Origin: an uncultured delta proteobacterium
GTDB lineage: Bacteria > Desulfobacterota > Binatia > Binatales > Binataceae
Assembly (NCBI GenBank): GCA_963774665.1
Contig: CAVZGB010000015.1
Span: 68,823-132,822, forward strand
Length of the DNA stretch: 64,000 bases
Reading direction: 5' to 3'
Shown piece by piece: positions 8,456 through 61,649 of the stretch; position 1 is the stretch's first letter; every line of letters begins with the position of its first letter. The translations under genes and the position numbers were made by a program. The notes under the pieces were generated by a model that had not been told where the DNA came from, ran no database searches, and saw nothing but the letters and a program-made list of their open reading frames with translations.

Positions 8456-8524
8456 CGGCTACGCTGTCACTGGAACTCGTTTCTGATTGCTTTTGCGAGG
8501 CTTAGTGAGCTCCAGCAATGAAAC

Positions 8525-9841
8525 TCATGCCTCAATCAAAAAGCTGCTGATCGCTCTTGACCAGTCTCTCTGCGAACTGAGATTTCGAGAAAGATCCGCT
8601 CGCTCAATCCAACTGGTTTTGACGTATCGATCAGGCCGTTCTCGAATTGTCTTGTTTTCGAAAGCTGCGACATTGGCCGGACCGGAGAATGACACCTGGA
8701 ATACTACGCCAACATGGCGAGCCGCCCGTTTATCTTCCGAGCTATGGACAATCCCAATTGGATGTAGATGGGGCAAATCTTCCAACGAGAGTTCTTCATG
8801 TAGTTCTCTTCGGAGACCTGTCAGGACGCTCTCCCACTTCGACTTGGCTTGATCCCTATCTTGCTTTCTTACGTGTCCCCCGGCCCAATTTCCGAAGGCT
8901 TCGTGAAGCGACTCGCCTGGTTCGAACCGAACGTTCGTCAGAAAGCGATTGCCATTTCGAATGATACAGACGGGGACGACCTGCAGGAGATCGTCCGAAG
9001 TCTCCGCAATCGATCTGGCCACGTACGTGCCTTTGCTATTTACCAGCTTTGAGAGCGTTTTCCACTTCGGCGTAATCATCTTCTTATCAGAAAGCTTGAT
9101 CTGTCCTTCGAGAGATTTACGCGGAATACAGAGAACCTCCTCGTCTGCGAATTTGCCAAAGCACCTCAGAAGGGTCTTTGCGATATCTGTGATCGTTTTC
9201 ATTTCCGGACCTCGACTGTTCTCGATAACTGTAATCGATTTGAAATCTGCTTTATATCTACGGGCCGCCTCCAAGTAGTGCCGGCGCAACTGGGTTAAAG
9301 TACCAATGTTCATTATGGCTCCATGGCGGAGCGTGATTTGCCTAGCGTACTCTCTGTCGATGGAGGTTTTTGCGTCGCAATGCATGACGAAAACCATATC
9401 GATCAGCCCGCGCCACCGTGGCGTCAATACAAAGCTGCGAAACCCTTCCGCTTCAGCTTTGGATACTCGGTGCGTTTTTTCCTGCCAGTCGATCCAAACT
9501 AGCCCGTCGAAAAGCCCTCTATCCAAGATAAGAACATCGAGTTTTTCGTCTTCGAGAGCTTCAATTATTCCGTTGAGCGTAGCGCATGTCACCCACGTGT
9601 TGAAGAAAGCGGTGCCCTTGTCCAATAACGGAGCAACCGAAGCGCGCTCCTGGAAAGTGCGGACCATAACGCCATTCCTTTTGAAGAACTGGTGTATTGC
9701 ACCAATCGTGGTCGTCTTTCCAGACTTCGGAGTGCCAGCAAACTCGATAATAAAAGGTCGGCGCTTGTCGGACAATCTTGGACGAATTAGGGAGATCTGT
9801 TTTTCGAGACGCGCGCGAACCTGCTGCATCGATCCATCCAT
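8525..9841 (-). CDS. fusion protein: N-terminal P-loop nucleotide/nucleoside-kinase-like domain (Walker A AGTPKSGKTT; hhhhDRG Walker B/DRx) plus C-terminal Nudix-like hydrolase domain (divergent Nudix box ...GGHV...E-x7-RELHEELSL)
   Basis: The track ORF is 8525..10150, but its first 103 codons are antisense to the high-GC HigA-like gene. Met104/Met108 (MDGSMQQ) at 9841 is preceded by ggggATGG and marks the drop to about 50% GC, so it is the more likely start. The DRG motif after a hydrophobic strand resembles dNK/TMPK-type kinases. The REUxEE core of the Nudix box is present, with a long insertion between GG and the Glu. Confidence 0.6.
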   Translation of the reverse strand: MDGSMQQVRARLEKQISLIRPRLSDKRRPFIIEFAGTPKSGKTTTIGAIHQFFKRNGVMVRTFQERASVAPLLDKGTAFFNTWVTCATLNGIIEALEDEKLDVLILDRGLFDGLVWIDWQEKTHRVSKAEAEGFRSFVLTPRWRGLIDMVFVMHCDAKTSIDREYARQITLRHGAIMNIGTLTQLRRHYLEAARRYKADFKSITVIENSRGPEMKTITDIAKTLLRCFGKFADEEVLCIPRKSLEGQIKLSDKKMITPKWKTLSKLVNSKGTYVARSIAETSDDLLQVVPVCIIRNGNRFLTNVRFEPGESLHEAFGNWAGGHVRKQDRDQAKSKWESVLTGLRRELHEELSLEDLPHLHPIGIVHSSEDKRAARHVGVVFQVSFSGPANVAAFENKTIRERPDRYVKTSWIERADLSRNLSSQRDWSRAISSFLIEA

Positions 9842-9963
9842 CCCCAATACCCCTATGTTTGCCGCCCTGTGGCGGCGCGACACCGGCGCATCAGGAAGCG
9901 GTCCGTTCCAATCTTCGACAAACGATAAGCGGCATAATAGTTTGGAAGAAGAGGCAAGCAAAG

Positions 9964-10327
9964 ATGGTTCGCTGAAACAAAATACCGCCTGCTTCACCCC
10001 GGGGTGGTCCTCTACGAGGACTTCATCGTGCCGACCGGCATCAGCATCCACCGACTTGCGATGGATCTGCGTGTGCCGGCCAATCGCATCGCGGAAATCG
10101 TGAAGGGCGAGCGCGCCATCTCGGCTGACACCGCACTTCGCCTCGCTCATTATCTCGGTACGTCTGCGGAATTCTGGCTTGGCTTGCAGAGCGATTGCGA
10201 TCTCGAAAAAGCCAGGGACGAGCTGGCGCCAAAAATTGAGTGCGAGGTTCAGCCACCAAACGTGCGGCGTAGTTCGCGTTCATCCGGCTCTTTTCAGCGA
10301 GCGGCAAGTACGCTATCCAAGGTATAA
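9964..10327 (+). CDS. higA: HigA-family (VapI-type) XRE antitoxin-like HTH protein, orphan, with an apparent frameshift right after the ATG
   Basis: The LLHPGVVLYEDF...GERAISADTALRLAHYLGTSAEFWLGLQSDCDL region matches the HigA antitoxin family (HPGEIL, HTH, FWLNLQ). The in-frame region upstream has no ATG. An SD (gaagagg) plus ATG at 9964 is in the -1 frame, and one extra G after the ATG would give MFAETKYRLLHPG. The track ORF starts at a GTG at 10004. Confidence 0.7.
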
Positions 10328-11811: not shown

Positions 11812-14101
11812 ATGGCGGCATCAACCACGACAGACAATTTCAAAGTTATCGGCACGCGTCCGATTCGGCACGACGGCGTTGATAAGGTCACCGGCCGCGC
11901 CAAGTACGGCGCTGACTACGCGTTCCCCGGAATGTTGCACGGCAAAGTGCTGCGCAGCCCGCACGCTCACGCGAATATCAAATCGATCAATATCGACAAG
12001 GCGCTTAAGCTCCCCGGCGTCAAGGCTATCGTCACCGGAAAGGATCTGCCGAAGGCCGAGAACAAGCTCGAGCAGGCCGGCGAAATGGTCATCAATCCGA
12101 TGTACCTGTCGATGAACATCCTCGCGCACGACAAGGTCCTGTATGACGGCCATGCGATCGCCGCCGTCGCCGCGACCAGCCCGCATATCGCCGAGGAAGC
12201 TTTGCGGCTGATCGAAGTCGAATACGAAGTGTTGCCGCCTGTCATGACTGTCGATGTCGCGACCAAGCCTGGCGCGCCGATTCTGCTGAAGGACCTGCGC
12301 AACAAGGAAGAGGGCGACAAGCCGACCAACGTCGCGCAGCACTACCAGTTCAAACGCGGCGACGTCGAAGCAGGATTCAAGGGCGCCGACTACGTGATCG
12401 AGCGCGAGTTCAATACCGCGATGGTCCACCAGGGATACATCGAGCCGCACAATGCCGTCGGCATCTACAACTCCGATGGACAGGCGACGATTTACTGCTC
12501 GACGCAGGGCGCCTTCGACGTGCGCTCGCTGAGCGCGCAGGTACTCGGGATGCCGGTCGGCCATATCAAAGTCGTGCCGGCTGAGATCGGCGGCGGCTTC
12601 GGCGGCAAGACTACCATCTATCTCGAGCCGCTCTCCGTCCTGCTGTCGAAGAAGACCGGCGCCCCGGTCAAGCTGGTGATGTCGCGCTCGGAAGTTCTCC
12701 GTGCGAGCGGCCCGACCTCGGGCTCCAAGATCAAAGTGAAGATGGGCGCGAGCAAGGACGGCAAACTCGTCGCCGCCGAAATCTGGATGGCCTACGAGGC
12801 TGGCGCGTTCCCCGGATCGCCGGTAGGCGCGGGCGCGATGTGCATCATCGCTCCTTACACCATCGAGAATTTCGTAATCGACGCGTACGACGTTGTCGTC
12901 AATCGCCCCAAGACCGCGGCCTATCGCGCGCCGGGCGCAACCAACGCCGCGTTCGCCTCCGAGACGATCATCGACGAGCTCGCCGAAAAGTGCGGAATCG
13001 ATCCGATCGATTTCCGCCTCAAGAACGCGGTCAAAGAGGGCGATGCGCAGGTTGTCGGTCCTCCGTTCAAGCGCATCGGATTGATCCAGACGCTCGAAGG
13101 GAATCAAGAACAGCCCGCACTACAAGTCCAAAGTGACCGGCAAGTTCCGTGGACGCGGCGTCGCATCGGGCTTCTGGTTCAACGCCGGGATGCAATCGTC
13201 GGCCACGGTGAATATCCATGCCGACGGAACCGCCAGCGTCGTGACCGGCTCGCCGGATATCGGCGGCTCGCGCGCTTCGATGGCGATGATCACCGCCGAA
13301 GTTCTCGGACTTCCGGTGACGGACGTCCGCCCGATCACCGCCGACACCGATTCGATCGGGCATACCGACGTCACTGGCGGCAGCCGCGTGACCTTCGCAA
13401 CCGGCATGGCGGTGTACGAGGCAGCCAAGGACGCCGAGCGCCAGCTGATCGAGCGCGCCGCCAAGGTCTGGGAGAAAAAGCCCGACGAGGTGGAATTCCG
13501 CGACGGCATGCTTCACGCGAAAGGCAACGGCGTGCCGCCGATGTCGCTCAAGCAGCTCGCGCCCCGCTTTGCGCGCACGGGCGGTCCGATCACCGGTCGT
13601 GCGAGCGTGAACGCCCGCGGCGTAGGTCCCGGGTTCGCGACGACGCTCGTCGACGTCGAGGTCGATCCCGATACCGGCAAAGTACAAATCCTGCGATGCA
13701 CCGTCGCGCAAGATGCGGGCAAGGCGATTCATCCGAGCTACGTCGAAGGACAGATGCAGGGCGGCACCGCGCAGGGACTCGGATGGGCGCTCAACGAGGA
13801 ATACTTTTACGACGACAAGGGCACGCTGCGTAACTCCGGATTTCTCGACTACCGTATGCCCACCTGCCTCGACCTGCCGATGATCGAAACCGTCGTGGTC
13901 GAGGAAGCAAACCCCGGTCATCCGCTGGGCGTGCGCGGCGTCGGCGAGGTATCGATCGTGCCGCCGGTCGCAGCGGTAGCCAACGCTATCTATCGTGCGG
14001 TCGGCGTCAGGATGACGGAGACCCCGATGTCGCCGCCGAAGCTGCTGAAAGCGATGCTGAAGCATCGTGACTCGACAAAACATTCCGCTGCGGCGGATTG
14101 A
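11812..14101 (+). CDS. molybdopterin-binding large subunit of a xanthine dehydrogenase/CO-dehydrogenase-family enzyme (form II-like AYRAPG motif, not bona fide CO dehydrogenase), with an apparent frameshift near 13095-13110
   Basis: N-terminal 430 aa in frame 1 (track ORF 11812..) and C-terminal 322 aa in frame 2 (13133..14101). Both are CoxL/XdhA-like. Frame 2 already reads ...NSPHYKSKVTGKFRGRGVASGFWFN upstream of 13133, so one indel near gaagggaatcaag explains the split. Confidence 0.8.
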
Positions 14102-24826: not shown

Positions 24827-25252
24827 TCAGATCTCCTTTTTGGAGTTGCGAATAGCAATATCGTTTTCGAGGTAGCGTGGATTCGCGATACGCAGTTTGT
24901 CTTCGACGCTCTGACGCACAACCGCAAGCACTTCGCGGCGCCAATCGCCGTCGTCAGCCTCGCCCGCGCGAATTTTCGTAGTCAGCTCTGCGCCCATGCT
25001 CACAGCGGCAGCGCATAGATCGTTGAGGCTATGGAGATGCGGCGAGTCGTGTCCGAGCAGACGCGCCAGTGCTTTTACCTCGCTCCGAACAAATGGATCT
25101 TCCAGTTTTATTTCGCGCGCCACGACGCGCATCACGTTGGCGACTACTCGGGCCTGGAATTGGCGCGCGCCCTGGATTGCGGGCACGAGTTCGCTCTCGA
25201 CAAAGTCGGCGGCCGCTTCGAGCAATTCAACTGAGGTCGGTCGGTCCTGCAT
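24827..25252 (-). CDS. small helical protein of unknown function (DUF, partner of phosphotransferase genes)
   Basis: 141-aa ORF, 4 nt upstream of the previous gene and 39 nt downstream of the APH-like gene. Confidence 0.45.
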   Translation of the reverse strand: MQDRPTSVELLEAAADFVESELVPAIQGARQFQARVVANVMRVVAREIKLEDPFVRSEVKALARLLGHDSPHLHSLNDLCAAAVSMGAELTTKIRAGEADDGDWRREVLAVVRQSVEDKLRIANPRYLENDIAIRNSKKEI

Positions 25253-25290
25253 ATCGATTACTCACATTGCTATTCGACTCTACCATGTTA

Positions 25291-26310
25291 CTACTCAATG
25301 AGATTCAACAGCTCCAGTTCAGTTTCTGCCGTCCGCCGTCCGATGCTGGCCAGTTCGACACTCTTCACGAATCCGTCGATATGAGTACGCGCCTGACTGA
25401 TGGTGATTATGCCCCAGCGCAAATTGCCGAAGACCTCCCAGAAGCGCGCAGCTTCAGGATCGACGGCGGTGCCGCTGGCTTTTTCGTACGCGCGAAAGAA
25501 ATCCTCGCGAGCGCCGAGCCCTCCGACCGGTTTCTGATCGTTGCCGAAACGCCAGGCACGCACGCACATCCATCCGACGTCCTCCATCGGATCGCCGAGA
25601 TGCGCCAACTCCCAATCGAGGATCGATCGCACGCCTTCGGGACCGAAAATGACATTGCCGATCCTGTAGTCGCCGTGGACGAGCGTCTTTCGCGGAGTCC
25701 TTGGAATGCGCTTCAGAAGCCATCGGAAGGCGAGTTCGAACGCAGGATGTGGTTCGAGCGCGAGGCGTCGAAAGTTTTCCTCGTAGCGCTTGACCTCGGT
25801 CAGCGCTGCACTGTCGCCCGGCTCCGCCAGGAAGTCGAGTTTGTGTTTGACCGGATCGATCCGATGAATCTTCGCGAGAATTTCGGCGAGCTGCGTGGGC
25901 ATCGCGTCTCGCGCGCGGGCATAGGTGTCGTCGCGGAGCAGTCGGCGCGCAATAGTTTCGCCATCGACGCGCTCCATGATGAAAAACGCGGAACCGAGCA
26001 CTGCGGGATCTTCGGAAACCCAGAACACTTCGGGCACCGGAATGCGTTCTTCGAAAGCTGCTCGGATCACCATGAACTCGTGGCGGCGATTGGTGGAGAT
26101 GTTGTGAGCGCCCGGATCGCGCCGCAACACCATCGCGCGTCGAGTAGTTTCGCCGCCACGCTCCATCGCGCAATCGAACGACCAGATCTCGCGCGACGCG
26201 CCACCCGGCATCTTGCGAAAATTGTCGATCGCGACACTATCGAAGTGGCCTTCAGTGCGAATGAAGCCGGTCAGACGGCGGACCATTTCGCTGGGTTCGA
26301 TTCTCTCCAC
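25291..26310 (-). CDS. phosphotransferase-family protein (aminoglycoside-phosphotransferase/APH-like kinase fold)
   Basis: 339 aa with catalytic HGDYRIGNVIF and DWELAHLGDPMEDVG motifs. This is a second APH-like paralog in the window. Confidence 0.8.
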   Translation of the reverse strand: MERIEPSEMVRRLTGFIRTEGHFDSVAIDNFRKMPGGASREIWSFDCAMERGGETTRRAMVLRRDPGAHNISTNRRHEFMVIRAAFEERIPVPEVFWVSEDPAVLGSAFFIMERVDGETIARRLLRDDTYARARDAMPTQLAEILAKIHRIDPVKHKLDFLAEPGDSAALTEVKRYEENFRRLALEPHPAFELAFRWLLKRIPRTPRKTLVHGDYRIGNVIFGPEGVRSILDWELAHLGDPMEDVGWMCVRAWRFGNDQKPVGGLGAREDFFRAYEKASGTAVDPEAARFWEVFGNLRWGIITISQARTHIDGFVKSVELASIGRRTAETELELLNLIE

Positions 26311-26373
26311 TACGCGCGCTCACTTCCGATCAAAATGAGTATCATGAAATTTCGCCGCTCCGCATACGTCGAC

Positions 26374-27186
26374 TCAGGTGCGATAGCCGACCTTCTGCGC
26401 AATTCCGTCGCCGAGCAGATTGAAGCCGAGAATCGAAAAGCCGATCGCGAGTCCCGGCGCAGTCGTGAGATGCGGTGCGACGAGCAGGAACGCGCGGCCG
26501 GCGTCGAGCATGTTGCCCCACGTGGGAGTGGGCGGGAGCGCGCCGAGACCCAGGAACGAAAGCGCGGCTTCGGCGCCGATTATTCCGCCGACTCCGAACG
26601 TCGCCTGCACCGCAAGCGGTCCGACGACTCCGGGCAGAATATGGCGCATCAGCAGTCGCGAGCGGCCGGCGCCGAGAGTTTCGGCCGCGAGCACATACTC
26701 GCGCTCGCGCAAGGTCAGCACTTCACCTCGCACGATGCGCGCGTAGCCGGTCCATCCCATCGCGGTCAGCGCGATCACTAGATCGATCAGTCCCGGTCCA
26801 AGAATCGCGGCTAACGCAATAGCGAGCAGGATTCCTGGAAAGGCGAGAACGATATCCACCCCGCGCATTATCAGGTTGTCGATTCGACCGCCCGACAACG
26901 CGGCGGTAGCGCCAATCAGGCTGCCGACAACGAGCGAGATCGCAACCACGATGGTGGAAACCGAGAGAGAGAGACGCGCGCCCCACAGGATACGGGCAAG
27001 AATGTCGCGGCCGAGTGCGTCGCAACCGAACGGATGCGCACGGCTGGGTCCGGCGAGAATGTTTGCAAGATCGATCGAAAGGGGATCGGTGCTGAACACA
27101 ATCGGACCGATAATCGCTGCTACGACTGTCGCGACGACAATAGTCACTCCAATAGCCAGTGACGGATTGCGGAAGGGCGCTCTCAC
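26374..27186 (-). CDS. ABC transporter permease (DppC/OppC-like, peptide/nickel family)
   Basis: TMs and an EAA-like loop, with C-terminal ...LGFNLLGDGIAQKVGYRT. The likely GTG start overlaps the upstream stop (GTGA). Confidence 0.8.
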   Translation of the reverse strand: MRAPFRNPSLAIGVTIVVATVVAAIIGPIVFSTDPLSIDLANILAGPSRAHPFGCDALGRDILARILWGARLSLSVSTIVVAISLVVGSLIGATAALSGGRIDNLIMRGVDIVLAFPGILLAIALAAILGPGLIDLVIALTAMGWTGYARIVRGEVLTLREREYVLAAETLGAGRSRLLMRHILPGVVGPLAVQATFGVGGIIGAEAALSFLGLGALPPTPTWGNMLDAGRAFLLVAPHLTTAPGLAIGFSILGFNLLGDGIAQKVGYRT

Positions 27187-30229: not shown

Positions 30230-31834
30230 CTAGTGCGCGGCCATGCCGCCGGCTGGTTGCGCGCGACGCAATAGTAAGAAGGTCGGAATCAGAATCATCA
30301 TTACAATAGCCAGTGTGCGGTAGATGTCGTTGAACGACAGCATCATCGCCTGGCGCTGAATCATCGCGTACACCATCCCAAGCCCCTGCTTCTGGCCGGT
30401 GAGCATTTGCGGCATATAGTCAAAACTGCGCGCGCCGGGAGTGAGCCGCGCAGCATCGCTCATTTTCCATGCGTCGAAAACTGTGAAATGAGCGACCAGG
30501 TACGACTGATGGGTCTGCTCATGATTCACGAGCACCGTCGTCATGTACGAAATGCCGATCGCGGCCCCCGTGTTGCGCATCATGTTGTAGAGGCTCGCGG
30601 CGTAGCCGACGCGCTCGCGGCTGACGCATGAAAGCGTGGTGGCTGACAGGGTAGGGAAGATCATGCCCATCCCGACGCCCATGACGAGGCTCGGCCACGT
30701 CACCGTCCAGGTGCTCACCTGAGTGTTCCAGCCCGCCATCTGCCACAGTGCAACTGCCATGATGACGAAGCCGACGCCGATCAGCGGGCGCGTGTCGTAA
30801 CGGTAGCGCGCGAGCTGCCCTACGATCAGCATCGCCGCCATCGTGCCGAGCCCTCGTGGAGCGAGCACCAGGCCGGCCTTCCACGCGCTGTAGCCCATGA
30901 CTTCCTGCAGAAAAATCGGATTCAACAGACCGGTGCCGAACAGCGCGAAACTCATCGCGACCATAAGCATCACGGACATCGTGAAGACGGGAATTCCGAG
31001 GATTGAAAGATCGAGAATCGGATCCGGCGTGCGCAACTCGTTGATCGTAAGTCCGATGATGCAGAGCGCTGCGAAAATCGTGCACCAAACAACCCACGGC
31101 GAACTGAACCAATCGGCGCGCTGTCCGCGATCGAGTACGAGCTGCGCCAGGCCGAGCCCGACGACCAGCAGTATGATGCCGGTGTAATCGGTTTTGCCGC
31201 CCTTGGCGCGGCGGTTGCGCAAGTAAGCGGGATCGTGGACGAACGTCCAGACCATCAGGAACGCGGCAGCTCCAATCGGCAGGTTGATGTAAAAATTCCA
31301 GCGCCAGTTCCAATTGTCGGTGATCCATCCGCCTAGCGTCGGCCCCATGATCGGCGCGACCATCAGGCCCATGCCCCACGTCGCCATCGCGAGCTGCTGT
31401 TCGTTGGGCGGGAAGGTTTCCATCAGGATCGCCTGCGACGACGGAACCATCGCAGCGCCCGCCGCACCCTGTATCAATCGGAAGACGACCATCTGATCCA
31501 GCGATCGAGCTGCGCCGCACAGTCCCGACGCCGCGACGAACACCGCGACCGACATCAGGAAGTAGCGCTTGCGGCCGAAGCGCGACGAGATCCACCCCGT
31601 CATCGGAATCATGATGCCGTTGGCGACCAGGTAGCTGGTGAGCACCCACGCGATCTCGTCGACGCTCGCAGAAAAGCTGCCCTGCATATGCGGCAGCGCG
31701 ACGTTGACGATCGACGTGTCGAGGACCTCGAGCGTCGTGCCGAGCATCACGGCCAGCGCGATCAGCCACTTATGGCTGGAAGATCCGTACTCGGGAAAGT
31801 CGGTTCCAATCGGGGTTGAGGCTGCGACTGCCAA
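30230..31834 (-). CDS. MFS transporter, DHA2 (EmrB/QacA) family, 14 TMS
   Basis: 534 aa with LDTSIVNVALP, motif A GWISSRFGRKR and a typical DHA2 C-terminus. The start is TTG per the track. An out-of-frame ATG at 31859 precedes a T6 run. Confidence 0.85.
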   Translation of the reverse strand: MAVAASTPIGTDFPEYGSSSHKWLIALAVMLGTTLEVLDTSIVNVALPHMQGSFSASVDEIAWVLTSYLVANGIMIPMTGWISSRFGRKRYFLMSVAVFVAASGLCGAARSLDQMVVFRLIQGAAGAAMVPSSQAILMETFPPNEQQLAMATWGMGLMVAPIMGPTLGGWITDNWNWRWNFYINLPIGAAAFLMVWTFVHDPAYLRNRRAKGGKTDYTGIILLVVGLGLAQLVLDRGQRADWFSSPWVVWCTIFAALCIIGLTINELRTPDPILDLSILGIPVFTMSVMLMVAMSFALFGTGLLNPIFLQEVMGYSAWKAGLVLAPRGLGTMAAMLIVGQLARYRYDTRPLIGVGFVIMAVALWQMAGWNTQVSTWTVTWPSLVMGVGMGMIFPTLSATTLSCVSRERVGYAASLYNMMRNTGAAIGISYMTTVLVNHEQTHQSYLVAHFTVFDAWKMSDAARLTPGARSFDYMPQMLTGQKQGLGMVYAMIQRQAMMLSFNDIYRTLAIVMMILIPTFLLLRRAQPAGGMAAH

Positions 31835-32007
31835 AAAATTCGTCCGTGCGGCGTGCTCATTTCAGATTAGACGCGATGGATTTCCGATGATACCGCGAAC
31901 ACAAATTCGACACGCGGTGTTCATCGGGTGGTAACGCGGGTACGCTTCTAATCGTCATTGGGTGAGTGCGCGAATTCTTTACCGCGCGGGTGCGGATGTG
32001 GGGCAAC

Positions 32008-33561
32008 ATGGATGACATCGAGCGCCTGGGACGTTACCTTCTAACGATGCGGCTGGGCGCCATCGACGTCGGATCCAACTCCGTACATATGATCGTGGCC
32101 GACGTTAGCCGTGAGGGCCACCTCGAGGTCGTGGACCGCGTCAAGGAGATGGTGCGGCTGGGCCGGCGCTCGTTCACAACGGGGCGCCTCACGACAGAAT
32201 CGATGGACCTCGCGGTGCGCGCGCTGATGAATTTCAAGCGGCTGCTGCGAGTGCGCCGCGTCGTCCGTCTGCGCGCGGTGGCTACCAGCGCGGTGCGCGA
32301 GGCGCGCAATCGGACAGAATTCATCCGCCGCATCAAGCGCGAGACCGGCCTCACCGTCGAAGTGATCTCCGGCCTCGACGAGGCTCGCCTGATCTTCCAG
32401 GCTGCTCGTCATGCGCTCGGCCTCGACGGCGGACCTCATCTGCTCGTCGACGTCGGCGGCGGCAGCGTGGAGTTGGTGCTGGTGCGCGACGGCAAGCCGC
32501 TGTGGATGCGCAGTGTGAAGCTGGGCGCCGCGCGTCTGGCCGAGCGGTTTCTGCTTGACGATCCCCCAACGCGCGATCAGTTGAGCAAGCTCGACGCGCA
32601 TCTCGAGCGCGTGATCGGCCCGTTGATGCGGAAGGCGCGGCGCGCAGGCGTAATCCGCGCAATCGGAACCTCGGGGACGATCAACACTCTGGTCGCGATG
32701 GCGCGATCGTCACGCGGCGAGGAGCTCGGCCGATTGCACGGCGCGAGCGCGTCGGCCGGCGAAATTTCCGATCTATCGCGCGACCTGGTCGAGGCCAACG
32801 CTGCGCTGCGCGTCGATCTCCCCGGAATGGATGCCAAGCGGGTCGACCTGATGCCGGCAGCCGCGACACTGGTGAACTTCATCCTGAAAAATTCTGGCGC
32901 GCCCGAGCTGGTCGCATGCACCTGGGCGCTACGCGAGGGCGTGCTGCTCGGGCTCGCGCACAAGATCGACTCGCGCTCCGCCGTCGACGCGCGTCGCCGA
33001 TCGGTCAACGCGCTGGCTGCTCGATTCACGGGCGCCAACGAGCACGGCAAACAGGTGGCGAAGCTTGCGCTGAAGCTCTTCGACGCGACCGCGCCGGTTT
33101 TGGGCCTGCCCAAGTCCTCGCGAGAACTCCTTGAATTCGGGGCTCTACTGCACGATATAGGCCACGCGATTGATCATGACCGGCATAATCGCCATTCTTA
33201 CTACCTGATTAAGAATGCGGAGCTGTTCGGCTTCGACACTGACGAAATCGAGGTCATCGCGCAGGCGGCTCGCGGGCATCGCAAGCAGGCCCCGAAACTC
33301 GATTCGCCGGATTTGAAATCGCTCAGCCCCGCCAAGCGCCGTGTGATCAGGGGCCTCGCCGCGATTCTCCGTGTCGCTGACGCGCTGGATCGAAGCCACT
33401 TCGGTGTGGTTAAGAATATTGAGGTCAGATATTCACCGGGCCGCGTAATCGTCGGAGTCGATTCGAAGCGCGAAAAGGCCGACCTCGAACTATGGACATG
33501 CGAGAGAAGGACCGACCTGTTATCGAGACTGCTGGATCGCCAGGTAGTCCTCCAGCGCTAG
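32008..33561 (+). CDS. Ppx/GppA-family phosphatase (exopolyphosphatase/guanosine pentaphosphate phosphohydrolase) with C-terminal HD domain
   Basis: AIDVGSNSVHMIVAD, VDVGGGSVEL, and an HD region (LLHDIGHAIDHDRHNRHSYYLI). The start is ambiguous (32008 or 32047). Confidence 0.8.
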   Translation: MDDIERLGRYLLTMRLGAIDVGSNSVHMIVADVSREGHLEVVDRVKEMVRLGRRSFTTGRLTTESMDLAVRALMNFKRLLRVRRVVRLRAVATSAVREARNRTEFIRRIKRETGLTVEVISGLDEARLIFQAARHALGLDGGPHLLVDVGGGSVELVLVRDGKPLWMRSVKLGAARLAERFLLDDPPTRDQLSKLDAHLERVIGPLMRKARRAGVIRAIGTSGTINTLVAMARSSRGEELGRLHGASASAGEISDLSRDLVEANAALRVDLPGMDAKRVDLMPAAATLVNFILKNSGAPELVACTWALREGVLLGLAHKIDSRSAVDARRRSVNALAARFTGANEHGKQVAKLALKLFDATAPVLGLPKSSRELLEFGALLHDIGHAIDHDRHNRHSYYLIKNAELFGFDTDEIEVIAQAARGHRKQAPKLDSPDLKSLSPAKRRVIRGLAAILRVADALDRSHFGVVKNIEVRYSPGRVIVGVDSKREKADLELWTCERRTDLLSRLLDRQVVLQR

Positions 33562-34355
33562 AGACGCCTGCCGCGGTTCCTTTGTCCAACGGCCACGCTC
33601 CATCCTCGACTTCGTCCAAGCCCGCAACTCGCACCGCGCCCAAGACTCTGCTCGAAACTCCGCATCCTTATAAGGGTCGTTTGATTTGCGTTGAGGGTAT
33701 CGACGGCTCGGGCAAATCGACGCAACTGCTGCTGCTCGAGCGATGGCTGCGAGCGCGCGGCTACCCGGTCCATTTCACGGAGTGGAACTCGTCGCGGCTG
33801 GTGCGTCGCTCGATGCAGCGCGGCAAGAAAAAGAATCTGCTGACGCCGACGACCTTCTCGCTCCTGCATGCGGTCGATTTCGCCGATCGGCTGACGTATC
33901 AGATCCTGCCGCCGCTGAAGGCCGGCATGATAGTGCTCGCCGACCGCTACGTTTACACCGCCTTTGCGCGTGACGTCGCGCGCGGCGTGCATCCCGATTG
34001 GGTCCGTGCCGTTTACAGCCCTGCGCTGCGGCCGGATTTGACGCTCTACTTCCGCGTGCCGATCGATATTTCGCTCGAACGCCTGCTGTCGGGACGCGCC
34101 AAGCTCAAGTACCATGAGGCCGGCATGGACGTGGGACTGTCAGCGGATCCCGTCGAGAGTTTCCGGATGTTCCAAAGCCGGGTGCTCGAAATATACGATC
34201 AACTGACGACCGAGTTTGGGATGCGCCCGATCGACGCGACGGCCGAAATCCCGAATCAGCAGAAGGTCGTGCGCACGATGGTCCAGGAAATTCTCAGTGA
34301 CTACGACCTCAAACGGGCGAACGGAAAAAATGGGTCCACACCGCAGCCGCGCTAA
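33492..34355 (+). CDS. thymidylate-kinase-like P-loop kinase with about 60-aa Pro/Ser/Thr-rich N-terminal extension
   Basis: CVEGIDGSGKST (Walker A), ADRYVYTAFA (DRY motif), LID-like region. Its 5' end overlaps the ppx 3' end. Confidence 0.75.
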   Translation: MDMREKDRPVIETAGSPGSPPALETPAAVPLSNGHAPSSTSSKPATRTAPKTLLETPHPYKGRLICVEGIDGSGKSTQLLLLERWLRARGYPVHFTEWNSSRLVRRSMQRGKKKNLLTPTTFSLLHAVDFADRLTYQILPPLKAGMIVLADRYVYTAFARDVARGVHPDWVRAVYSPALRPDLTLYFRVPIDISLERLLSGRAKLKYHEAGMDVGLSADPVESFRMFQSRVLEIYDQLTTEFGMRPIDATAEIPNQQKVVRTMVQEILSDYDLKRANGKNGSTPQPR

Positions 34356-35088
34356 ATCCTGGTACGGGCACGGCCTGCCGTACGTCGCGAAAAAACGCCT
34401 GCCCGGCCATCTGATCGCAATCGAAGGAACCGACGGCGTCGGTCGCTCGGCGCAAATCGAATTGCTCCGCCCATGGCTCGAGCTCGAAGGCTACGCCGTC
34501 AGCAACACCGGATGGACCCGCTCCCCCTTGCTCTCCGAGACCATCAACGAGGCCAAGGCGGGGCATCAGCTCACGGTAACGACCTTCTCGCTGCTCTATG
34601 CCGCGGATTTTGCAGATCGCCTCGAGCACGAAATCCTGCCGGCGCTGCAGGCGGGGTTCATCGTGATCGCGGATCGGTACATGTACACGGCGTTCGCGCG
34701 CAACTCCGTGATGGGCGCCGACCCGGATTGGACGCGCGAAGTCTTCGGCATGGCGCTCGTGCCCGACCTTGTCCTCTACCTCGACATCGACGTCGAGTCG
34801 CTCATTCCTCGCGTGATCATGGGCAAGGGGATGGACTACTGGGAATCCGGGATGCATCTCGCGCTCGGCACCGACCTGTTCGATTCGTTCGAGCATTACC
34901 AGGGCCGGCTGATAGACGAGTACCGGCGACTGTCCAGTGAGTTCGGTTTCGTCTCCGTCGATGCGCGCATGCCGATCGAGGAAGTTCAAAACGAGCTCAG
35001 AAAACACATTGCCGAATATTTGTCGCGCTCGAACAGTAAGTCTCATCCCGATACCGCCGAGAACGGAGTATCGACACGCAAGGAATAG
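34330..35088 (+). CDS. thymidylate-kinase-like paralog with a degenerate P-loop (GTDGVGRS; Lys to Arg, no GK[ST])
   Basis: AIEGTDGVGRSAQ ... ADRYMYTAFA. Overlaps the upstream paralog by 26 nt. 252 aa. Confidence 0.65.
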   Translation: MGPHRSRAKSWYGHGLPYVAKKRLPGHLIAIEGTDGVGRSAQIELLRPWLELEGYAVSNTGWTRSPLLSETINEAKAGHQLTVTTFSLLYAADFADRLEHEILPALQAGFIVIADRYMYTAFARNSVMGADPDWTREVFGMALVPDLVLYLDIDVESLIPRVIMGKGMDYWESGMHLALGTDLFDSFEHYQGRLIDEYRRLSSEFGFVSVDARMPIEEVQNELRKHIAEYLSRSNSKSHPDTAENGVSTRKE

Positions 35089-35093
35089 CAACG

Positions 35094-36194
35094 GTGGTAG
35101 ATGAGCCGCGCTCCGATGCACCGCCGCGCAAGGTGACGCTTTCCCCCGGGGAAACCGTAGCCGACGCCGCGCGCAAAGCGATCGCGTTAGGAGTCGAATC
35201 CCTGGTACGGCATCAGAGCGCGGCGGAGTCCGGAGAAGCGGAGCCGCTTCATCAACTTCGCGTCGCCACGCGGCGTCTGCGTGCCACGATCGAATTGTTC
35301 TCGAGCGTCATTTACGCCGCGCAGCTCAAAATCTTCCGGCGTGATCTTCCGTGGATTGGCAGCATGGCCGGCGGCGCCCGCGAATGCGACGTAACATCGG
35401 CCTTGATAACTGCTCGCGCTGCCAGAATCGATCCCGCTCTGAAAGACGCGATCGCGCCCATGATTGCGGCGCTCGGCGAAGGGCGACAGTCGGAGCACAC
35501 CCGGCTTCACGAGCTGCTGGCGTCGAAGCGTTATCGGGCTTTGCTCGCGAAACTGGCGCGGCCGGCGATCAAGAAAGTCGGCGCCGACCGCCGGCTGGGC
35601 ATCGTCGCCGCTCAATTGGTCCGTCCTGCTTCGCGCGGCGCAGCTCGCCTTGGTGGAAAACTCGCCGCCGACGCGCCGGATCCGGTTTTTCACAAGCTCC
35701 GCGTTCGCATCAAGCGTCTCCGCTACGAACTCGAGATGATTGCGCCGCTCGGCGCCAAGCGCCATCGAAAAACCCTGAGGCGGCTCGAGGAGCTGCAGGA
35801 ACTGCTCGGGACCTATCACGACGTATCGGTGGCATCGGCATGGCTGCTGTCGTATGCGGAAACGTCGTCGGCGCCGCCCAAAACGATGCTCGCGGCCGGC
35901 GCATTGATCCAGTCGCTGAGCAGCCGCGAAAGTAAATTGCGCAGACAATGCATGCGAGCGTGGCGGCGGTTCGAGCGCTCCGACGCGATGCACGACACGC
36001 TCGAGGAAATTCGGCGTGCCGGCAGATTGGCGCTGAAGCCTGTCAGCTCGCCTCCTCCAGTCAGTGAAAAAACTGAAAAGAGCGAGTTCGGTTCGCCGAA
36101 TCAGTCGCCGGTCGCGGACCCGGACCTCGAAGACGCACCGGATTCCAATCGCCACTCGATGCACTCGCATTCCGCAACGGAAACAAATCCATGA
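35094..36194 (+). CDS. CHAD-domain protein (conserved histidine alpha-helical domain; polyphosphate-granule associated family)
   Basis: LHQLRVATRRLRATIELF, FHKLRVRIKRLRYELE and YHDVSVA are repeats characteristic of CHAD. GTG start. Confidence 0.75.
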   Translation: MVDEPRSDAPPRKVTLSPGETVADAARKAIALGVESLVRHQSAAESGEAEPLHQLRVATRRLRATIELFSSVIYAAQLKIFRRDLPWIGSMAGGARECDVTSALITARAARIDPALKDAIAPMIAALGEGRQSEHTRLHELLASKRYRALLAKLARPAIKKVGADRRLGIVAAQLVRPASRGAARLGGKLAADAPDPVFHKLRVRIKRLRYELEMIAPLGAKRHRKTLRRLEELQELLGTYHDVSVASAWLLSYAETSSAPPKTMLAAGALIQSLSSRESKLRRQCMRAWRRFERSDAMHDTLEEIRRAGRLALKPVSSPPPVSEKTEKSEFGSPNQSPVADPDLEDAPDSNRHSMHSHSATETNP

Positions 36195-36691
36195 GGTTGT
36201 ACATTCTGCGTCACGCGACCGCCGAAGAGGCTGCTTCGAGCGGCGACGACGGCGCGCGCAAGCTGACTGAGCGCTCGAAGGAAAAAATGCGCGGAGCCGC
36301 TGCCGGCCTTCGTGCGATGGGCTTGAAGTTCCACGTGATACTGACCAGCCCACTCGCGCGCGCGGCCGAGACTGCCGAGATCGTTTCTGCGGCCTATGAG
36401 AACATCCCGCCGCCCCAGGTCCTGCCCGCGCTTGCGACGGGAGTAGCAGCGACCGACGCGGTGAACGCACTCCGCGCATTTTCAAAGCATGAGGACGTGA
36501 TGATCGTTGGTCACGAGCCTCAACTCAGCGCCGTCGCGTCGATTCTGCTGACGGGAGCAAGCGACGTCGTGCATCTGAAATTGAAAACCGGCGGATGTAT
36601 CGCGATCGACCTTCCCGCCCGCTTCGAACGCGGTGGCGGCGAGCTGCGCTGGATGCTAACCCATCGCCAACTCCGCACGATGCGCAAATAA
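36191..36691 (+). CDS. sixA: phosphohistidine phosphatase SixA-like (histidine phosphatase superfamily)
   Basis: LYILRHATAE (RHG-type motif) and a conserved His in VGHEPQL. 166 aa. ATGA overlap with the CHAD stop. Confidence 0.75.
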   Translation: MRLYILRHATAEEAASSGDDGARKLTERSKEKMRGAAAGLRAMGLKFHVILTSPLARAAETAEIVSAAYENIPPPQVLPALATGVAATDAVNALRAFSKHEDVMIVGHEPQLSAVASILLTGASDVVHLKLKTGGCIAIDLPARFERGGGELRWMLTHRQLRTMRK

Positions 36692-36695
36692 TCTT

Positions 36696-36790
36696 GGTTT
36701 CCCCTCTCCCAGTATGGGAGAGGATGAAGGTGAGGGTCCTTATGCAGCGCGCGATTTTTTTCGCGCGCGATTCAAGATTCTGTGCCCGCG
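36696..36790. repeat. composite REP-like element (family copy 5, long form); paralog of 18413-18510
   Basis: cccctctccc-agtat-gggagagg plus atgaaggtgagggtcc plus ...ttttttcgcgcgcgattcaagattc. It lies 5 nt after the sixA stop. Confidence 0.6.
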
Positions 36791-36804
36791 ATAAATCCGC
36801 GCGC

Positions 36805-37413
36805 TTACTCCCAGATCACCTTCACCGGAACTTTCACTGGCGTGACTCCCCGAGTTCCGATCGCGCTCTCCGGAAATTTATCCGCCAGCCAGATCTTTCC
36901 CGGCGTGAGCTCCGTGACTACTCCCGCCGGCCTGACCTGGTCGCGAATATAAATCGAGCACGACCATCGCGCAGGCTCACCGTTCACTGCCGACAACGTC
37001 CCCGTCATCTTCTCGCATATCGAATTGTCCGCCAGCCGGAAAATCCACGGCTCGGGTTTACGATTGGGATGCGACGACCTGGGCAGCGGCTTCTTCAGCT
37101 TCAGAACAAAGCCGTCGGTTTTCACCGCGGGATTGGCGCCGCAGACTAGTTCTTCGCGATTCCCCGGAGTCATGAAACATGGATCGCTGATGCCGTTGCC
37201 CACCATGCATCGCCATGCGCCGCTTCGGTTAACGGCAATCGACTCCGTCCAGCACACGCCTTCGCGCACATCGCCCTTCGGGACCGTTGGCGTGAACCGA
37301 ATCACGCTGGTCTCCGACACCGTCAAAGAACTGGCCGGCAGCTGAGCGTGCACGGAGGTCGCGCACAACATCAATACGAAGCTGGCGAGGAATGCGTTGG
37401 CTCTGAGCAACAT
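36805..37413 (-). CDS. secreted Cys-containing hypothetical protein (signal peptide MLLRANAFLASFVLMLCATSVHA)
   Basis: Start chosen at Met36 of the track ORF. Its ATG overlaps the upstream stop (ATGA), suggesting translational coupling to the GH-like gene. Confidence 0.5.
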   Translation of the reverse strand: MLLRANAFLASFVLMLCATSVHAQLPASSLTVSETSVIRFTPTVPKGDVREGVCWTESIAVNRSGAWRCMVGNGISDPCFMTPGNREELVCGANPAVKTDGFVLKLKKPLPRSSHPNRKPEPWIFRLADNSICEKMTGTLSAVNGEPARWSCSIYIRDQVRPAGVVTELTPGKIWLADKFPESAIGTRGVTPVKVPVKVIWE

Positions 37414-38693
37414 CACGGCAACGGCAGCGGCAAATTGGGAGAGGGTTGCATGCCGGAATGTACCGCCGCAGTGGCGGCACCTGCCAGGCTCAGATACCAG
37501 TCGCTCGGCAGCGCGCAACCGTCGGCATCAAGCGTGACGAACGAATATCCCGGCGGTATCCCCGTCACGGGAGCCCCTGCCGCATCGGGCAGCATCTTGA
37601 ACATTGCGGTGCCCTCATTGACCTCGTCGAACATCGCGCCGTAGAGCATTGTCGCCCCCGCCCCCAGCGCGTCATATACCTGCCGCCAGTAGAAGCGTCC
37701 GCATGCGCGCGGAATCTGATTGCTAATCGGAGTCCCCTGGCCCAGTGCACGATTCGTGTTGGCGAAGGAATAGCCTGGAAACAGCACCGGCAAGTAGTCT
37801 ACGCCCATCGCATGCGTGGCCGCTAAATCCGGCACCCACACGGTGCTGGCGTACGTATCCGCCGAGGCATTGCCGGTGAAACGGCCGACCGACCAGGGGC
37901 TAAGCACGCCGAGCTTGGGCCAGACTTTCTTCCATTTGGGATCGGACGAGGCATCGCCGGTTCCCGTCCGCCAATACGACGGCACGCCACCCATAATTGT
38001 CACACCGCCGAACTTCGCGCTGGCCTTGTCGAGCGATTTGAGCATGTTCAACGTTGCCGATGGAGTTAGAGATCGGCCCGCGAAGCCTAACCCCCAGACC
38101 GCGAGGAGCGGATGCCCGCGATGGTGCAGGTAGGCCGGACTGCTCGTGATCCCTTCTTGCTCGAGCTTCTTCCAGTCCTTCGCGACCGTGTTCAGCTTGG
38201 AGTCGGGCAGGCCGCTAAGGTCGTACATCACGAAAAACACCCGCCCGTTGTCCTCCGCCGCCTGACGAACATTGGCCAGCACGATGTTGCGCGCCTGAAG
38301 CGTCGCCGGGTTCAACAGGTCTACCGAGAACCGCTGCAGCGCGACGCCGTCCAGCCCGTATTGTTGCATCCAGGCGAATTGCGTCTCGACCGTTGCCGGA
38401 TTCGCGTCGCTGAAAAGATTCACCGGATTGCTGGCAGCGTCGAGCATTGTGGTGACGCACTGCTGCGCCGTTGGATAATCGGCGGCGTTCGGCAGATTGT
38501 CCACCGTCGGATCAACTCCCGTGAACCAGTGCCACCAGCCAACCGTAGTGCCATCGCCCGGGCAATTGAACCAGCCCTGGTAGCCCATGATCAGCTTGCC
38601 GGTAAGAGAGATGAGGTGTCGGCGATCGACGAGTGCCTTGGTATTGCATGCCCTGCGCATGGGCGGGGCCGGATGGGATCGCCAGGCATCCAA
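37413..38693 (-). CDS. putative secreted glycoside-hydrolase-like (TIM-barrel) protein; family uncertain
   Basis: 426-aa ORF with Trp/aromatic-rich motifs (MGYQGWFNCPG, WWHWF). A canonical signal peptide (MIFSIRKRLWLLALAAFGCLAIPSGPAHAQ) is encoded immediately upstream in another frame (38653..38742), suggesting an N-terminal frameshift. Confidence 0.5.
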   Translation of the reverse strand: MDAWRSHPAPPMRRACNTKALVDRRHLISLTGKLIMGYQGWFNCPGDGTTVGWWHWFTGVDPTVDNLPNAADYPTAQQCVTTMLDAASNPVNLFSDANPATVETQFAWMQQYGLDGVALQRFSVDLLNPATLQARNIVLANVRQAAEDNGRVFFVMYDLSGLPDSKLNTVAKDWKKLEQEGITSSPAYLHHRGHPLLAVWGLGFAGRSLTPSATLNMLKSLDKASAKFGGVTIMGGVPSYWRTGTGDASSDPKWKKVWPKLGVLSPWSVGRFTGNASADTYASTVWVPDLAATHAMGVDYLPVLFPGYSFANTNRALGQGTPISNQIPRACGRFYWRQVYDALGAGATMLYGAMFDEVNEGTAMFKMLPDAAGAPVTGIPPGYSFVTLDADGCALPSDWYLSLAGAATAAVHSGMQPSPNLPLPLP

Positions 38694-57806: not shown

Positions 57807-58877
57807 CTAGATCTGATAGACGAACAGCTTCTGTTCCTTTGGCCTTAGGAACACGTTGGCGCCGGTCTCCAGGTGCAGCGTCTGGTAGCGCTCGTGGCTG
57901 ATTTCGACCTGCACCATGTCGCCCCATGCGGCGACCAACTCGACTTTGACTTGTGGCCCGGCCGGGTTGATCGATTTCACCGTTGCGGGGAAGGTCTGCT
58001 TGCCGTTTGGCCTCAGCACGATTTCCAGCAGATGCGGCCGCACGTAGAGGACCGCCTTACCGGTCTCAGGATGCGCATGCGCGTGAGTGTTCTCGAGCTC
58101 GACGGCGGTGTCGCCGATAAACACGCGGCCGTTCTCGATTCGGCCGTGGAACAGATTCACGTTGCCCAGGAAGTTGTACACGAACGCGTTGGCGGGATGA
58201 TGATAGACTTCCTCGGCCGTGCCGATTTGCTCGATGTGTCCCTGGTTCATCACGACGATGCGGTTGGCGAGCTCGAGCGCCTCTTCCTGATCGTGCGTGA
58301 CGAAGACGCTGGTGATCTTGATCTCGTCATGCAGCCGCCGCAGCCATCGGCGGAGTTCCTGCCGCACCTTGGCGTCGAGCGCGCCGAACGGCTCGTCCAG
58401 TAGCAGGACTTTCGGCTCGACTGCGAGCGTGCGCGCAAGTGCAACGCGCTGGCGCTGGCCGCCGGAGAGCTGCGAGGGGTAGCGATCGGCAAGAAAATCG
58501 AGCTGCACGAGTTTCAGCAGCTCATGCACGCGGCGCGCGACTTCGGGCTCGGCGGGACGTTCGCGCCGGGGCAGCACGCGCATTCCGAACGCGACGTTCT
58601 CGAACACCGTCATGTGGCGGAACAGCGCGTAATGCTGAAATACGAAACCGACCTTGCGCTTGCGGACGCTGACGGCGCTCGCATCCTCGCCATGGAACAG
58701 TACTTCGCCGGTGTCGGGAGTCTCGAGTCCCGCGATTATTCTCAGCAGCGTGGTCTTGCCCGAGCCCGACAGCCCCAGCAACGCGACCAGTTCGCCGGTT
58801 TCGATATGCAGGCTGATATTGTCAACCGCGACGAAGTCGCCGAACCTCTTGCTGATGTTCTTGAGCTCGATACTCAT
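57807..58877 (-). CDS. cysA: sulfate/thiosulfate (or molybdate) ABC transporter ATP-binding protein CysA
   Basis: Walker [23 protein letters not shown], Walker B LLLDEP, and a TOBE C-terminal domain. Confidence 0.9.
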
Positions 58878-59758
58878 GCCGCAACTTTGACCGCCATGTC
58901 GTCCTGTTCCTGCTTTACGGGCACCACCTGGCGCTCGAGGTAGTACTTGGCGATGAGCGTCGCAATCGCGAGCAGGGTGAGCAGCGACGAGACCGCAAAC
59001 GCGGCCGCGAATTGGTAGTCATTGTACAGAATCTCGATGTACAGCGGCATCGTGTTGGTATGCCCGCGGATATGCCCCGATACGACAGAGACCGCGCCGA
59101 ACTCGCCCATCGCGCGCGCGTTGCACAGCACCATCCCGTACAGCAGGCCCCATTTGACGTTGGGAATCGTCACGCGAAAAAACATTTGCCATCCGCCGGC
59201 GCCCAGCACGATCGCGGCTTCCTCTTCCTCGCTGCCGACCGCCTGCATGATCGGAATCAGCTCGCGCGCGGCGAGCGGAAACGTGACGAAGATCGTCGCG
59301 AGCACGATTCCCGGCTCCGCGAAGATAATTCTGATTCCGTGGTCGGCGAGCCATCCGCCGAGCGGCGCGCGCACCCCGAGCAGCAGCACGAACAGCATCC
59401 CCGCGATCACCGGCGAGACCGAGAACGGGATGTCGATAAGCGTCAGCAGCATTTGCTTGCCGGGAAAATCGAAGCGCGCGATCGCCCACGACGCGGCGAT
59501 TCCGAAAATGACGTTGAGCGGCACCGCGATCGCGGCAGTCATCAGCGTCAGGCGGATTGCGGCGCGCGCCTCGGGATCTGTGATCGCGGCGAAGTACGCG
59601 CCGATTCCCTTCTGCAGCGCCTCGGTGAAGACCGCGATGACCGGGATGAAAATGAATAGCGCGACAAATACCAGCGCGATCGTGATCAACGCGATTCTGA
59701 CCGCCGGCGGATCGGCAGTCCCGGGTTTTTTCGGCGCGCTTTGCGTTTGAGTGGCCAT
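58874..59758 (-). CDS. cysW: sulfate ABC transporter permease CysW
   Basis: EAA-type permease with characteristic CysTW blocks. Start at Met13 of the track ORF. Confidence 0.85.
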
Positions 59759-59766
59759 CTGGAACG

Positions 59767-61641: not shown

Positions 61642-61649
61642 TCCTGTTC

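Follow-up and report, generated by a model that had tools for sequence, protein, structure and literature searches.

The 64,000-nt stretch of contig CAVZGB010000015.1 analyzed here (the window), from an uncultured bacterium of the family Binataceae, carries five plus-strand open reading frames (ORFs) at 31966-36691 that very probably form a polyphosphate (polyP)-turnover operon built around a family-3 polyphosphate kinase (PPK3). In order, they encode a Ppx/GppA-family protein, two thymidylate-kinase-like paralogs (TMK-A and TMK-B), a CHAD-domain protein and a SixA-type histidine phosphatase (Table 1). We read the cluster as a bacterial PPK3 operon because its gene content and kinase matches fit both the PPK3 operon of Sulfolobus acidocaldarius and the bacterial PPK3 neighborhoods predicted from it. 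A preliminary description of this DNA had reported the same order of overlapping or coupled genes on one strand, and Pfam, NCBIfam and the coordinates agree with it. That description had not recognized the arrangement as a characterized pathway; the cluster is, however, an added bacterial member of the known PPK3 system and not an unknown pathway.

The ppx operon of S. acidocaldarius consists of sixA (Saci_2017), ppx (Saci_2018), Saci_2019, Saci_2020 and a CHAD gene (Saci_2021), and was made public first as a bioRxiv preprint in 2024 and then in J Biol Chem in 2026 (Höfmann et al., 2026; PMC12995831). Saci_2019 and Saci_2020, annotated as "dTMP kinases" (dTMP, thymidine monophosphate), are not thymidylate kinases and were named PPK3; neither has dTMP kinase (dTMPK) activity, which a third Sulfolobus paralog does have (PMC12995831). 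The complex, SaPPK3, is a heterotetrameric (alpha2beta2) reversible ATP:polyphosphate phosphotransferase in which Saci_2019 is the catalytic subunit (cPPK3, or c) and Saci_2020 a regulatory subunit (rPPK3, or r) that is inactive alone and raises activity about ten-fold (PMC12995831). The inactivity of rPPK3 was attributed to replacement of the arginine in its DRX motif, and the ATP/ADP-binding residues were reported to be conserved in both subunits (PMC12995831). Among acceptors SaPPK3 prefers ADP, with some activity toward GDP; GTP does not serve as a donor, and ATP regeneration is favored when the ATP/ADP ratio is low (PMC12995831). The same study identified ST1543 as the cPPK3 of S. tokodaii and predicted bacterial PPK3 operons from neighborhoods containing PPX, SixA and CHAD (PMC12995831).

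Identity of the paired kinases

Both window kinases lie closer to PPK3 than to canonical dTMPKs. The best Protein Data Bank (PDB) match of TMK-A is S. tokodaii ST1543 (2plr/5h70) with an E-value of 2e-57, compared with about 1e-13 for canonical dTMPKs; TMK-B matches 2plr at 1e-43 and canonical dTMPKs at 1e-12. In an alignment with reference loci from S. acidocaldarius (L005), Nitrososphaera (L006) and a bacterium (L007), TMK-A is 49% identical to Saci_2019. AlphaFold2 (AF2) models the core of TMK-A with a pLDDT (predicted local distance difference test) score above 90 and TMK-B with a pLDDT of 85, and the top fold match of TMK-B is 5h70/4rzx at a template-modeling (TM) score of 0.90. A neighbor-joining tree of 170 sequences, with the Thermus thermophilus TMK as outgroup and 200 bootstraps, sets an r clade that includes four Sulfolobales r subunits apart from all c sequences and the outgroup in 159/200 replicates, and a c clade apart from all r sequences and the outgroup in 132/200. 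The positions of the two proteins in these clades assign TMK-A to cPPK3 and TMK-B to rPPK3.

The pairing is conserved over a wide phylogenetic range. One genome per GTDB species was scanned with a c-type alignment as query, and only the best 80 of 567 relatives, all at least 55% identical, were counted as PPK3; the 567 may include canonical TMKs, as one of the search patterns was not specific to PPK3. The 80 loci come from Binatia, Acidobacteriota, Nitrospirota, Planctomycetota, Bacteroidota and Ignavibacteriota, Chloroflexota, Verrucomicrobiota, Armatimonadota, Thermodesulfobacteriota, Melainabacteria and Nitrososphaerota. In a motif and synteny survey of 84 loci, annotated with hidden Markov models from four reference operons, the c gene is followed directly by the r gene on the same strand at 82 loci from many phyla, an arrangement far beyond chance. 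Of the partner genes, ppx is a neighbor at 64 of the 84 loci, sixA at 48 and CHAD at 41, with all three present at 34; conservation of the neighborhood, which the preliminary description had proposed as a check, is thus borne out. Overall the family covers at least 80 species-level genomes in more than 10 phyla and 249 clusters at 50% identity (E<=1e-30), and its 90% clusters in metagenomes number in the thousands.

It is scarcely credible that this is a plain duplication of a thymidylate kinase gene, both products converting dTMP to dTDP, which stands beside polyP genes by chance. Both proteins do match Pfam Thymidylate_kin, and source databases label the pair dTMP kinase. However, the TIGR00041 equivalog cutoff is 83.25 bits, and TMK-A (76.7) and TMK-B (82.5) both score under it (NCBIfam). 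The pair's synteny with ppx, CHAD and sixA also holds across phyla, and TMK-B has no Walker A lysine. The residues that contact dTMP we take to be the (T)REPGG loop, a phenylalanine stacking on thymine and the AYQG that follows DRY. Their identity is also stated in the SaPPK3 study, in which the Sulfolobus orthologs had no dTMPK activity while the third paralog did (PMC12995831). Compared with the T. thermophilus TMK, TMK-A has TEWNSS for TREPGG, LLH for LLF and FARD for AYQG, and TMK-B carries analogous replacements. The preliminary description had also named a scenario in which one kinase is the organism's sole tmk and the other a duplicate unrelated to polyP genes; the 2plr/5h70 E-values, the TIGR00041 cutoffs and the synteny with ppx are evidence against it.

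Two other identities were considered and rejected. That one paralog is the housekeeping tmk was rejected because both score under the equivalog cutoff, have other residues in place of the dTMP-binding motifs, fall in the c and r clades and share the synteny. Membership in PPK2 (PF03976) was rejected as well: neither protein has a profile match at E<=0.01, and the nearest folds are ST1543 and then dTMPKs.

The sequence analysis itself establishes the genes present, the places of the kinases in the c and r clades, their motifs and fold, and the conserved synteny. What reaction is catalyzed, whether r is inactive and how the subunits assemble are carried over from the archaeal homolog, and the mechanism proposed for the Binataceae operon is conditional on that analogy. 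In TMK-A, ATP or ADP would be held by the intact P-loop, the DRY motif and the lid, and the polyP chain would sit in a basic cleft that takes the place of the dTMP site of true thymidylate kinases. The terminal phosphate would then be moved reversibly, ATP + polyP(n) <-> ADP + polyP(n+1), and a low ATP/ADP ratio would lead, as in SaPPK3, to regeneration of ATP from polyP. TMK-B, a paralog without the catalytic Walker A lysine or the basic cleft, would activate cPPK3 through a hetero-oligomer, which in Sulfolobus is alpha2beta2. Ppx, the CHAD protein and SixA would be co-translated with the kinase; Ppx would hydrolyze polyP ends, the CHAD protein would bind polyP granules and SixA would act as a histidine phosphatase. 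The preliminary description had suggested a heterodimeric kinase and pseudokinase pair that uses or produces polyP-linked nucleotides. The pairing of a kinase with a pseudokinase on polyP matches the Saci_2019/Saci_2020 pair as well as the c and r clades, whereas the published complex is a heterotetramer rather than a heterodimer, and moves a phosphoryl group between ATP/ADP and the polyP chain instead of using or producing polyP-linked nucleotides (PMC12995831).

In a related proposal, the pair would phosphorylate a different acceptor (for instance GDP or another nucleoside di- or monophosphate) in a polyP-dependent way and be tied to the GppA side of the Ppx/GppA family rather than to ATP/ADP buffering. 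The adjoining Ppx/GppA-family protein, which NCBIfam equivalogs do not place in either Ppx or GppA, would allow this, as would the activity of SaPPK3 with GDP (PMC12995831). The proposal is nevertheless improbable, given that SaPPK3 prefers ADP, does not use GTP as a donor and has its ATP/ADP-binding residues conserved in both subunits (PMC12995831), and that the co-occurrence of CHAD with Ppx points to polyP itself. An ATP:polyP phosphotransferase of the PPK3 family remains the reading we adopt.

Sequence motifs and the second subunit

TMK-A has the features of a catalytic subunit: the Walker A motif GSGKST (K75 at 33714-33716), DRY (as ADRY, 33942-33950), TEWNSS, the basic patch RGKKKN (KKK) and RAKLKYHEAG. 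TMK-B has the Walker A motif GVGRSA, in which the lysine is replaced by arginine (R39, 34444-34446), and keeps DRY (ADRY, 34672-34680). The basic residues of the polyP cleft are lost in TMK-B, which has EAKAGH for RGKKKN, TGWTRS for TEWNSS and GKGMDYWE for RAKLKYHE. Its N-terminal SWYGHGLPY and its lid MDYWESGM correspond to (F/W)YGxGLPY and (M/L)DYWESG motifs that also occur in the second gene of the Nitrososphaera and bacterial reference loci, which likewise has no basic patch.

Across the survey the two subunits differ in Walker A. All 84 c subunits have the Walker A lysine and the DRX arginine. Among r subunits, 79 of 80 carry a Walker A arginine, as GxGR(S/T)T, and 78 of 80 keep the DRX arginine, including TMK-B and those of Nitrososphaerales; of 120 proteins found with an r profile, 119 have the Walker A arginine, and the remaining one is a fusion of a GK and a GR module. 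In Sulfolobales, all four r subunits have ADGY, whereas their Walker A residue is arginine in S. tokodaii and M. sedula and lysine in S. acidocaldarius and S. islandicus. TMK-B thus does not show the published rPPK3 trait, in which the DRX arginine is lost, and because 78 of 80 r subunits retain this arginine, its loss appears to be a trait of Sulfolobales rather than a criterion for the family. Judged from these sequences, the clade-wide mark of the r subunit appears to be the replacement of the Walker A lysine by arginine.

Such strict conservation suggests that the r P-loop is under selection, and it may bind nucleotide or phosphate without turnover. In P-loop NTPases generally, mutants with arginine in place of the Walker A lysine usually still bind nucleotide but do not turn it over. 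A tentative alternative to a purely structural r subunit can be built on this: the complex would be PPK3, but r, in its bacterial and Nitrososphaerales type, would be a site for binding nucleotide or the polyP end, an allosteric sensor (of ATP/ADP, for instance) or a second, slow catalytic site, and not a dead scaffold. The near-invariance of the Walker A arginine and the retention of the DRX arginine argue for selection and not decay, and the lone assayed r subunit, Saci_2020 (GKTT, ADGY), is atypical of the group. Conversely, r subunits have lost the basic polyP-cleft residues (KKK and the K-L-K of the lid), and nucleotide binding by GR-type r subunits is a prediction. It is possible, though still doubtful, that the r subunit of most PPK3 is a conserved Walker A arginine module, defined by GxGR(S/T)T, an intact DRY and no polyP cleft, that may bind nucleotide or the end of a phosphate chain and tune the direction of polyP/ATP conversion.

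A variant of the second paralog was observed at two loci, L076 (10639-11325, a metagenome-assembled genome of Gastranaerophilales) and L081 (10633-11325, an uncultured bacterium). It keeps the Walker A lysine (GSGKST), scores as c-like, carries SEWKTS rather than TEWNSS, and groups with r in 95/200 bootstraps and with c in 95/200. This paralog may be an intermediate or a variant regulatory subunit.

Several points weigh against the assignment of the cluster as a PPK3 operon with these subunit roles. The function in bacteria is transferred from the assayed Sulfolobus proteins across identities of 49% (c) and 28% (r). The published cause of r inactivity does not apply to TMK-B, because TMK-B keeps DRY, and its predicted inactivity draws on just two features, the Walker A replacement and the loss of the basic cleft. 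The PPK3 reading predicts a separate canonical tmk in the genome and, usually, neither PPK1 nor PPK2; among the about 60 ORFs of the window, about 25 of them scanned with Pfam and the rest read by eye, none was recognized as tmk, PPK1 or PPK2. Finally, a promoter and terminator scan of 31500-37600 returned the same counts as shuffled sequences.

Fusions, cluster layout and surroundings

Natural fusions join the c module to r, to r plus the Ppx domain III/HD, to NUDIX, to pyrophosphatase and to SPX, and they support the view that c and r form a physical complex and that PPK3 acts in phosphate metabolism. The single-chain PPK3 fusions P0379, P0393, P0404, P0432, P0362, P0422 and P0480 include chains of two TMK-like domains together with Ppx-GppA domain III/HD (621-696 aa), c-r chains (GK+GR) and NUDIX+c chains, and give Rosetta-stone support for a c-r-Ppx functional unit.

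A eukaryotic relative was also observed. P0462 (EukProt EP00164, Ancoracysta twista transcript GFYU01001947.1) is 794 aa long and has an N-terminal SPX domain followed by a c-type PPK3 kinase domain with the motifs GSGKST, CDRYFYTSLARD and TRWNSS, as well as APH/DUF2252-like regions. Long chains akin to it are P0454 (MFS, PPK3-like, APH and DUF2252; 1230 aa) and P0464 (inorganic pyrophosphatase and PPK3-like; 1610 aa). P0462 and its kin are possible SPX-regulated polyP kinases of protists.

Table 1. Features of the putative PPK3 operon in the window
Feature	Position	Strand	Basis
ppx, long Ppx/GppA-family exopolyphosphatase with C-terminal domain III/HD	31966..33561	+	Pfam Ppx-GppA 9e-62, Ppx-GppA_III 3e-31, HD 1e-11
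cPPK3 (TMK-A), predicted catalytic subunit, 287 aa	33492..34355	+	Pfam Thymidylate_kin 1e-19; PDB, clade, AF2
Disordered N-terminal extension of cPPK3, ~58 aa, Pro/Ser/Thr/Ala-rich	33492..33665	+	Start conservation, pLDDT
rPPK3 (TMK-B), predicted regulatory, non-catalytic subunit, 252 aa	34330..35088 (ORF from 34216)	+	Pfam Thymidylate_kin 4e-19; PDB, AF2, clade
CHAD-domain protein (polyphosphate-granule-binding module)	35094..36194	+	Pfam CHAD 9e-42, residues 29-251
SixA-type histidine phosphatase	36191..36691	+	TIGR00249, Pfam His_Phos_1 1e-10

The junctions between the five genes are, in order, -70, -26, +5 and -4 nt. The ppx gene (stop 33561) and TMK-A (ATG 33492) overlap by 70 nt, the TMK-A stop (34355) and the TMK-B ATG (34330) overlap by 26 nt, the TMK-B stop (35088) is separated by a 5-nt gap from the GTG start of the CHAD gene (35094), and the CHAD and SixA genes overlap in ATGA at 36191-36194. 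The last two junctions are those that the preliminary description had singled out. Both edges of the unit are strand switches, to an MFS transporter upstream (30230-31834, minus strand) and to minus-strand ORFs downstream. The gene order is the same on two ENA metagenome contigs that encode an identical SixA protein, and relatives of TMK-A at 83-94% identity are named "Candidatus Binatus sp." or "Candidatus Binataceae bacterium", of the candidate phylum Binatota. Searches of the whole window with Rfam gave no match and with ARAGORN no tRNAs; no RNA element is involved in the cluster.

The start codon of ppx is uncertain (GTG 31966, ATG 31996 or ATG 32008), and gene callers give a product of 521 or 517 aa on identical or near-identical contigs. 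The product scores 268.8 bits against the TIGR03706 exopolyphosphatase model, under its cutoff of 307, and since all NCBIfam equivalogs score under their cutoffs, sequence does not assign it to Ppx or GppA. The last ORF passes the TIGR00249 sixA cutoff of 74.5 with 81.4 bits (NCBIfam) and has the SixA motifs RHA (residues 7-9) and GHEP. The CHAD protein ends in a low-complexity tail of about 110 aa. Gene calling on ERZ25039465 (L002), a near-identical contig, splits the CHAD gene into two ORFs, one of 214 and one of 152 aa (8905-10004, compared with 35094-36194 in the window), which suggests a frameshift or an assembly error. A GMC oxidoreductase gene downstream is likewise in two pieces in L001. 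The split genes of L001 and L002 may reflect strain-level pseudogenization or sequencing errors.

The disordered N-terminal extension that the preliminary description had noted in the first kinase, of about 60 aa and rich in Pro, Ser and Thr, is real and lineage-specific. Binataceae cPPK3 opens with a conserved MD(M/L)REK and enters strand 1 through a conserved LLxxPHPYxGRL; the low-complexity sequence between the two is variable and 20-60 aa long. The 3' end of ppx runs over the first 23 codons of the extension. Upstream of the P-loop, the relatives L008, L010 and L011 offer no in-frame start but the ATG of MD(M/L)REK, which lies inside ppx near its 3' end; its distance to the ppx stop varies (-70, -121 and -145 nt), and the linker varies in length with the frame kept. 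Because this distance varies, the ppx frame that overlaps MD(M/L)REK does not account for its conservation. AF2 gives residues 1-41 a pLDDT of about 40 (37-45 for residues 1-40), far below that of the core. The extension is missing from the aligned sequences of other phyla and archaea and is thus specific to Binataceae. Some gene callers start TMK-A at TTG 33681, and the possibility that the extension is a gene-calling artifact was rejected on the absence of any other start in L008, L010 and L011 and on the shifting position of the MD(M/L)REK start relative to the ppx stop.

Elsewhere in the window, positions 7991-10150 form an island of low GC (0.51, against about 0.61 around it) that may have been horizontally acquired. 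It contains an ORF of 541 aa (8525-10150, minus strand) with the P-loop GTPKSGKTTT and weak Pfam matches to Thymidylate_kin (5e-4), AAA_28 (5e-4) and a C-terminal NUDIX (5e-3); it is not a canonical tmk. The ORF at 7991-8455 gave no match and shows no bias in GC at third codon positions, and PADLOC found nothing among the ORFs of 7991-10150. A sulfate/thiosulfate ABC transporter with CysA-, CysW-, CysT- and Sbp-like components, recognized by reading the translations, lies at 57807-63134 (minus strand), and an ORF adjoining it has a partial match to Porin_O_P, a phosphate-selective porin (E 7e-9). The C-terminal third of a CoxL-like molybdopterin ORF (11812-13833, plus strand) is an Arg-rich, out-of-frame sequence, which points to a possible frameshift. 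An ORF of 570 aa without a Pfam match (25069-26781, plus strand) is probably spurious, lying antisense to ABC-permease and APH genes of the minus strand, as in L002.

For the window itself, the finding is mostly explained by the published system and reveals no new one. Soils and waters harbor abundant Binataceae and other carriers (among them Acidobacteriota, Nitrospirota, Verrucomicrobiota, Chloroflexota and Nitrososphaerota), whose "dTMP kinase" pairs bear the wrong annotation in public databases. The PPK3 label gives a polyphosphate kinase to genomes that may otherwise seem to be without one, which matters when environmental metagenomes are read for phosphorus storage and energy buffering. 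The published picture of the family is also refined by the survey: the hallmark of r is the Walker A lysine-to-arginine replacement and the loss of the DRX arginine belongs to Sulfolobales. If the arginine-module view of r holds together with this breadth, PPK3 would be a major bacterial family of polyP kinases with a regulatory logic not yet described.

Likeness to and difference from known systems

The SaPPK3 operon is the closest known system. Both operons contain the same five gene families in a co-directional, overlapping unit, with the c paralog first and r directly after it. The c subunits share the Walker A lysine, DRY, TEWNSS and the KKK cleft, the r subunits fall in the same clade, and both subunits have the dTMPK fold. 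The two operons differ in that sixA is first in Sulfolobus and last in the Binataceae window, and in that the Sulfolobus Ppx has 411 aa and no HD domain, whereas that of the window has 531 aa and a domain III/HD. Saci_2020 combines a Walker A lysine with ADGY, whereas TMK-B combines a Walker A arginine with DRY, and TMK-A additionally has its disordered N-terminal extension of about 58 aa. SaPPK3 is an assayed enzyme, whereas the operon predicted in the window belongs to a mesophilic bacterium of the candidate phylum Binatota.

Canonical Tmk (PF02223, TIGR00041) shares with the window kinases the P-loop kinase fold, with its P-loop, DRX motif and lid, and provides the best structural matches outside PPK3 (TM 0.8-0.87). 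The window kinases are only about 23-29% identical to it, score under the equivalog cutoff, have the dTMP motifs replaced and occur as a c/r pair among polyP genes. PPK2 (PF03976), also a P-loop kinase, passes phosphate from polyP to nucleotides or the reverse. PPK3 has neither the N-terminal helix nor the distal helix bundle of PPK2, and its ADP and polyP sites are swapped (PMC12995831). In two-domain class II PPK2, an inactive N-terminal paralogous module aids oligomerization and activation, to which PPK3 has been likened (PMC12995831); the modules of class II PPK2 are fused in one chain, whereas those of the window are encoded by two separate genes. The ppk1-ppx operon of E. coli and other bacteria resembles the window in that a polyP kinase gene adjoins ppx, and SixA and CHAD stand nearby as they do in PPK1 contexts (PMC12995831). 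The kinase of the window is, however, unrelated to PPK1 and does not have its His-autophosphorylating, PLD-type fold.

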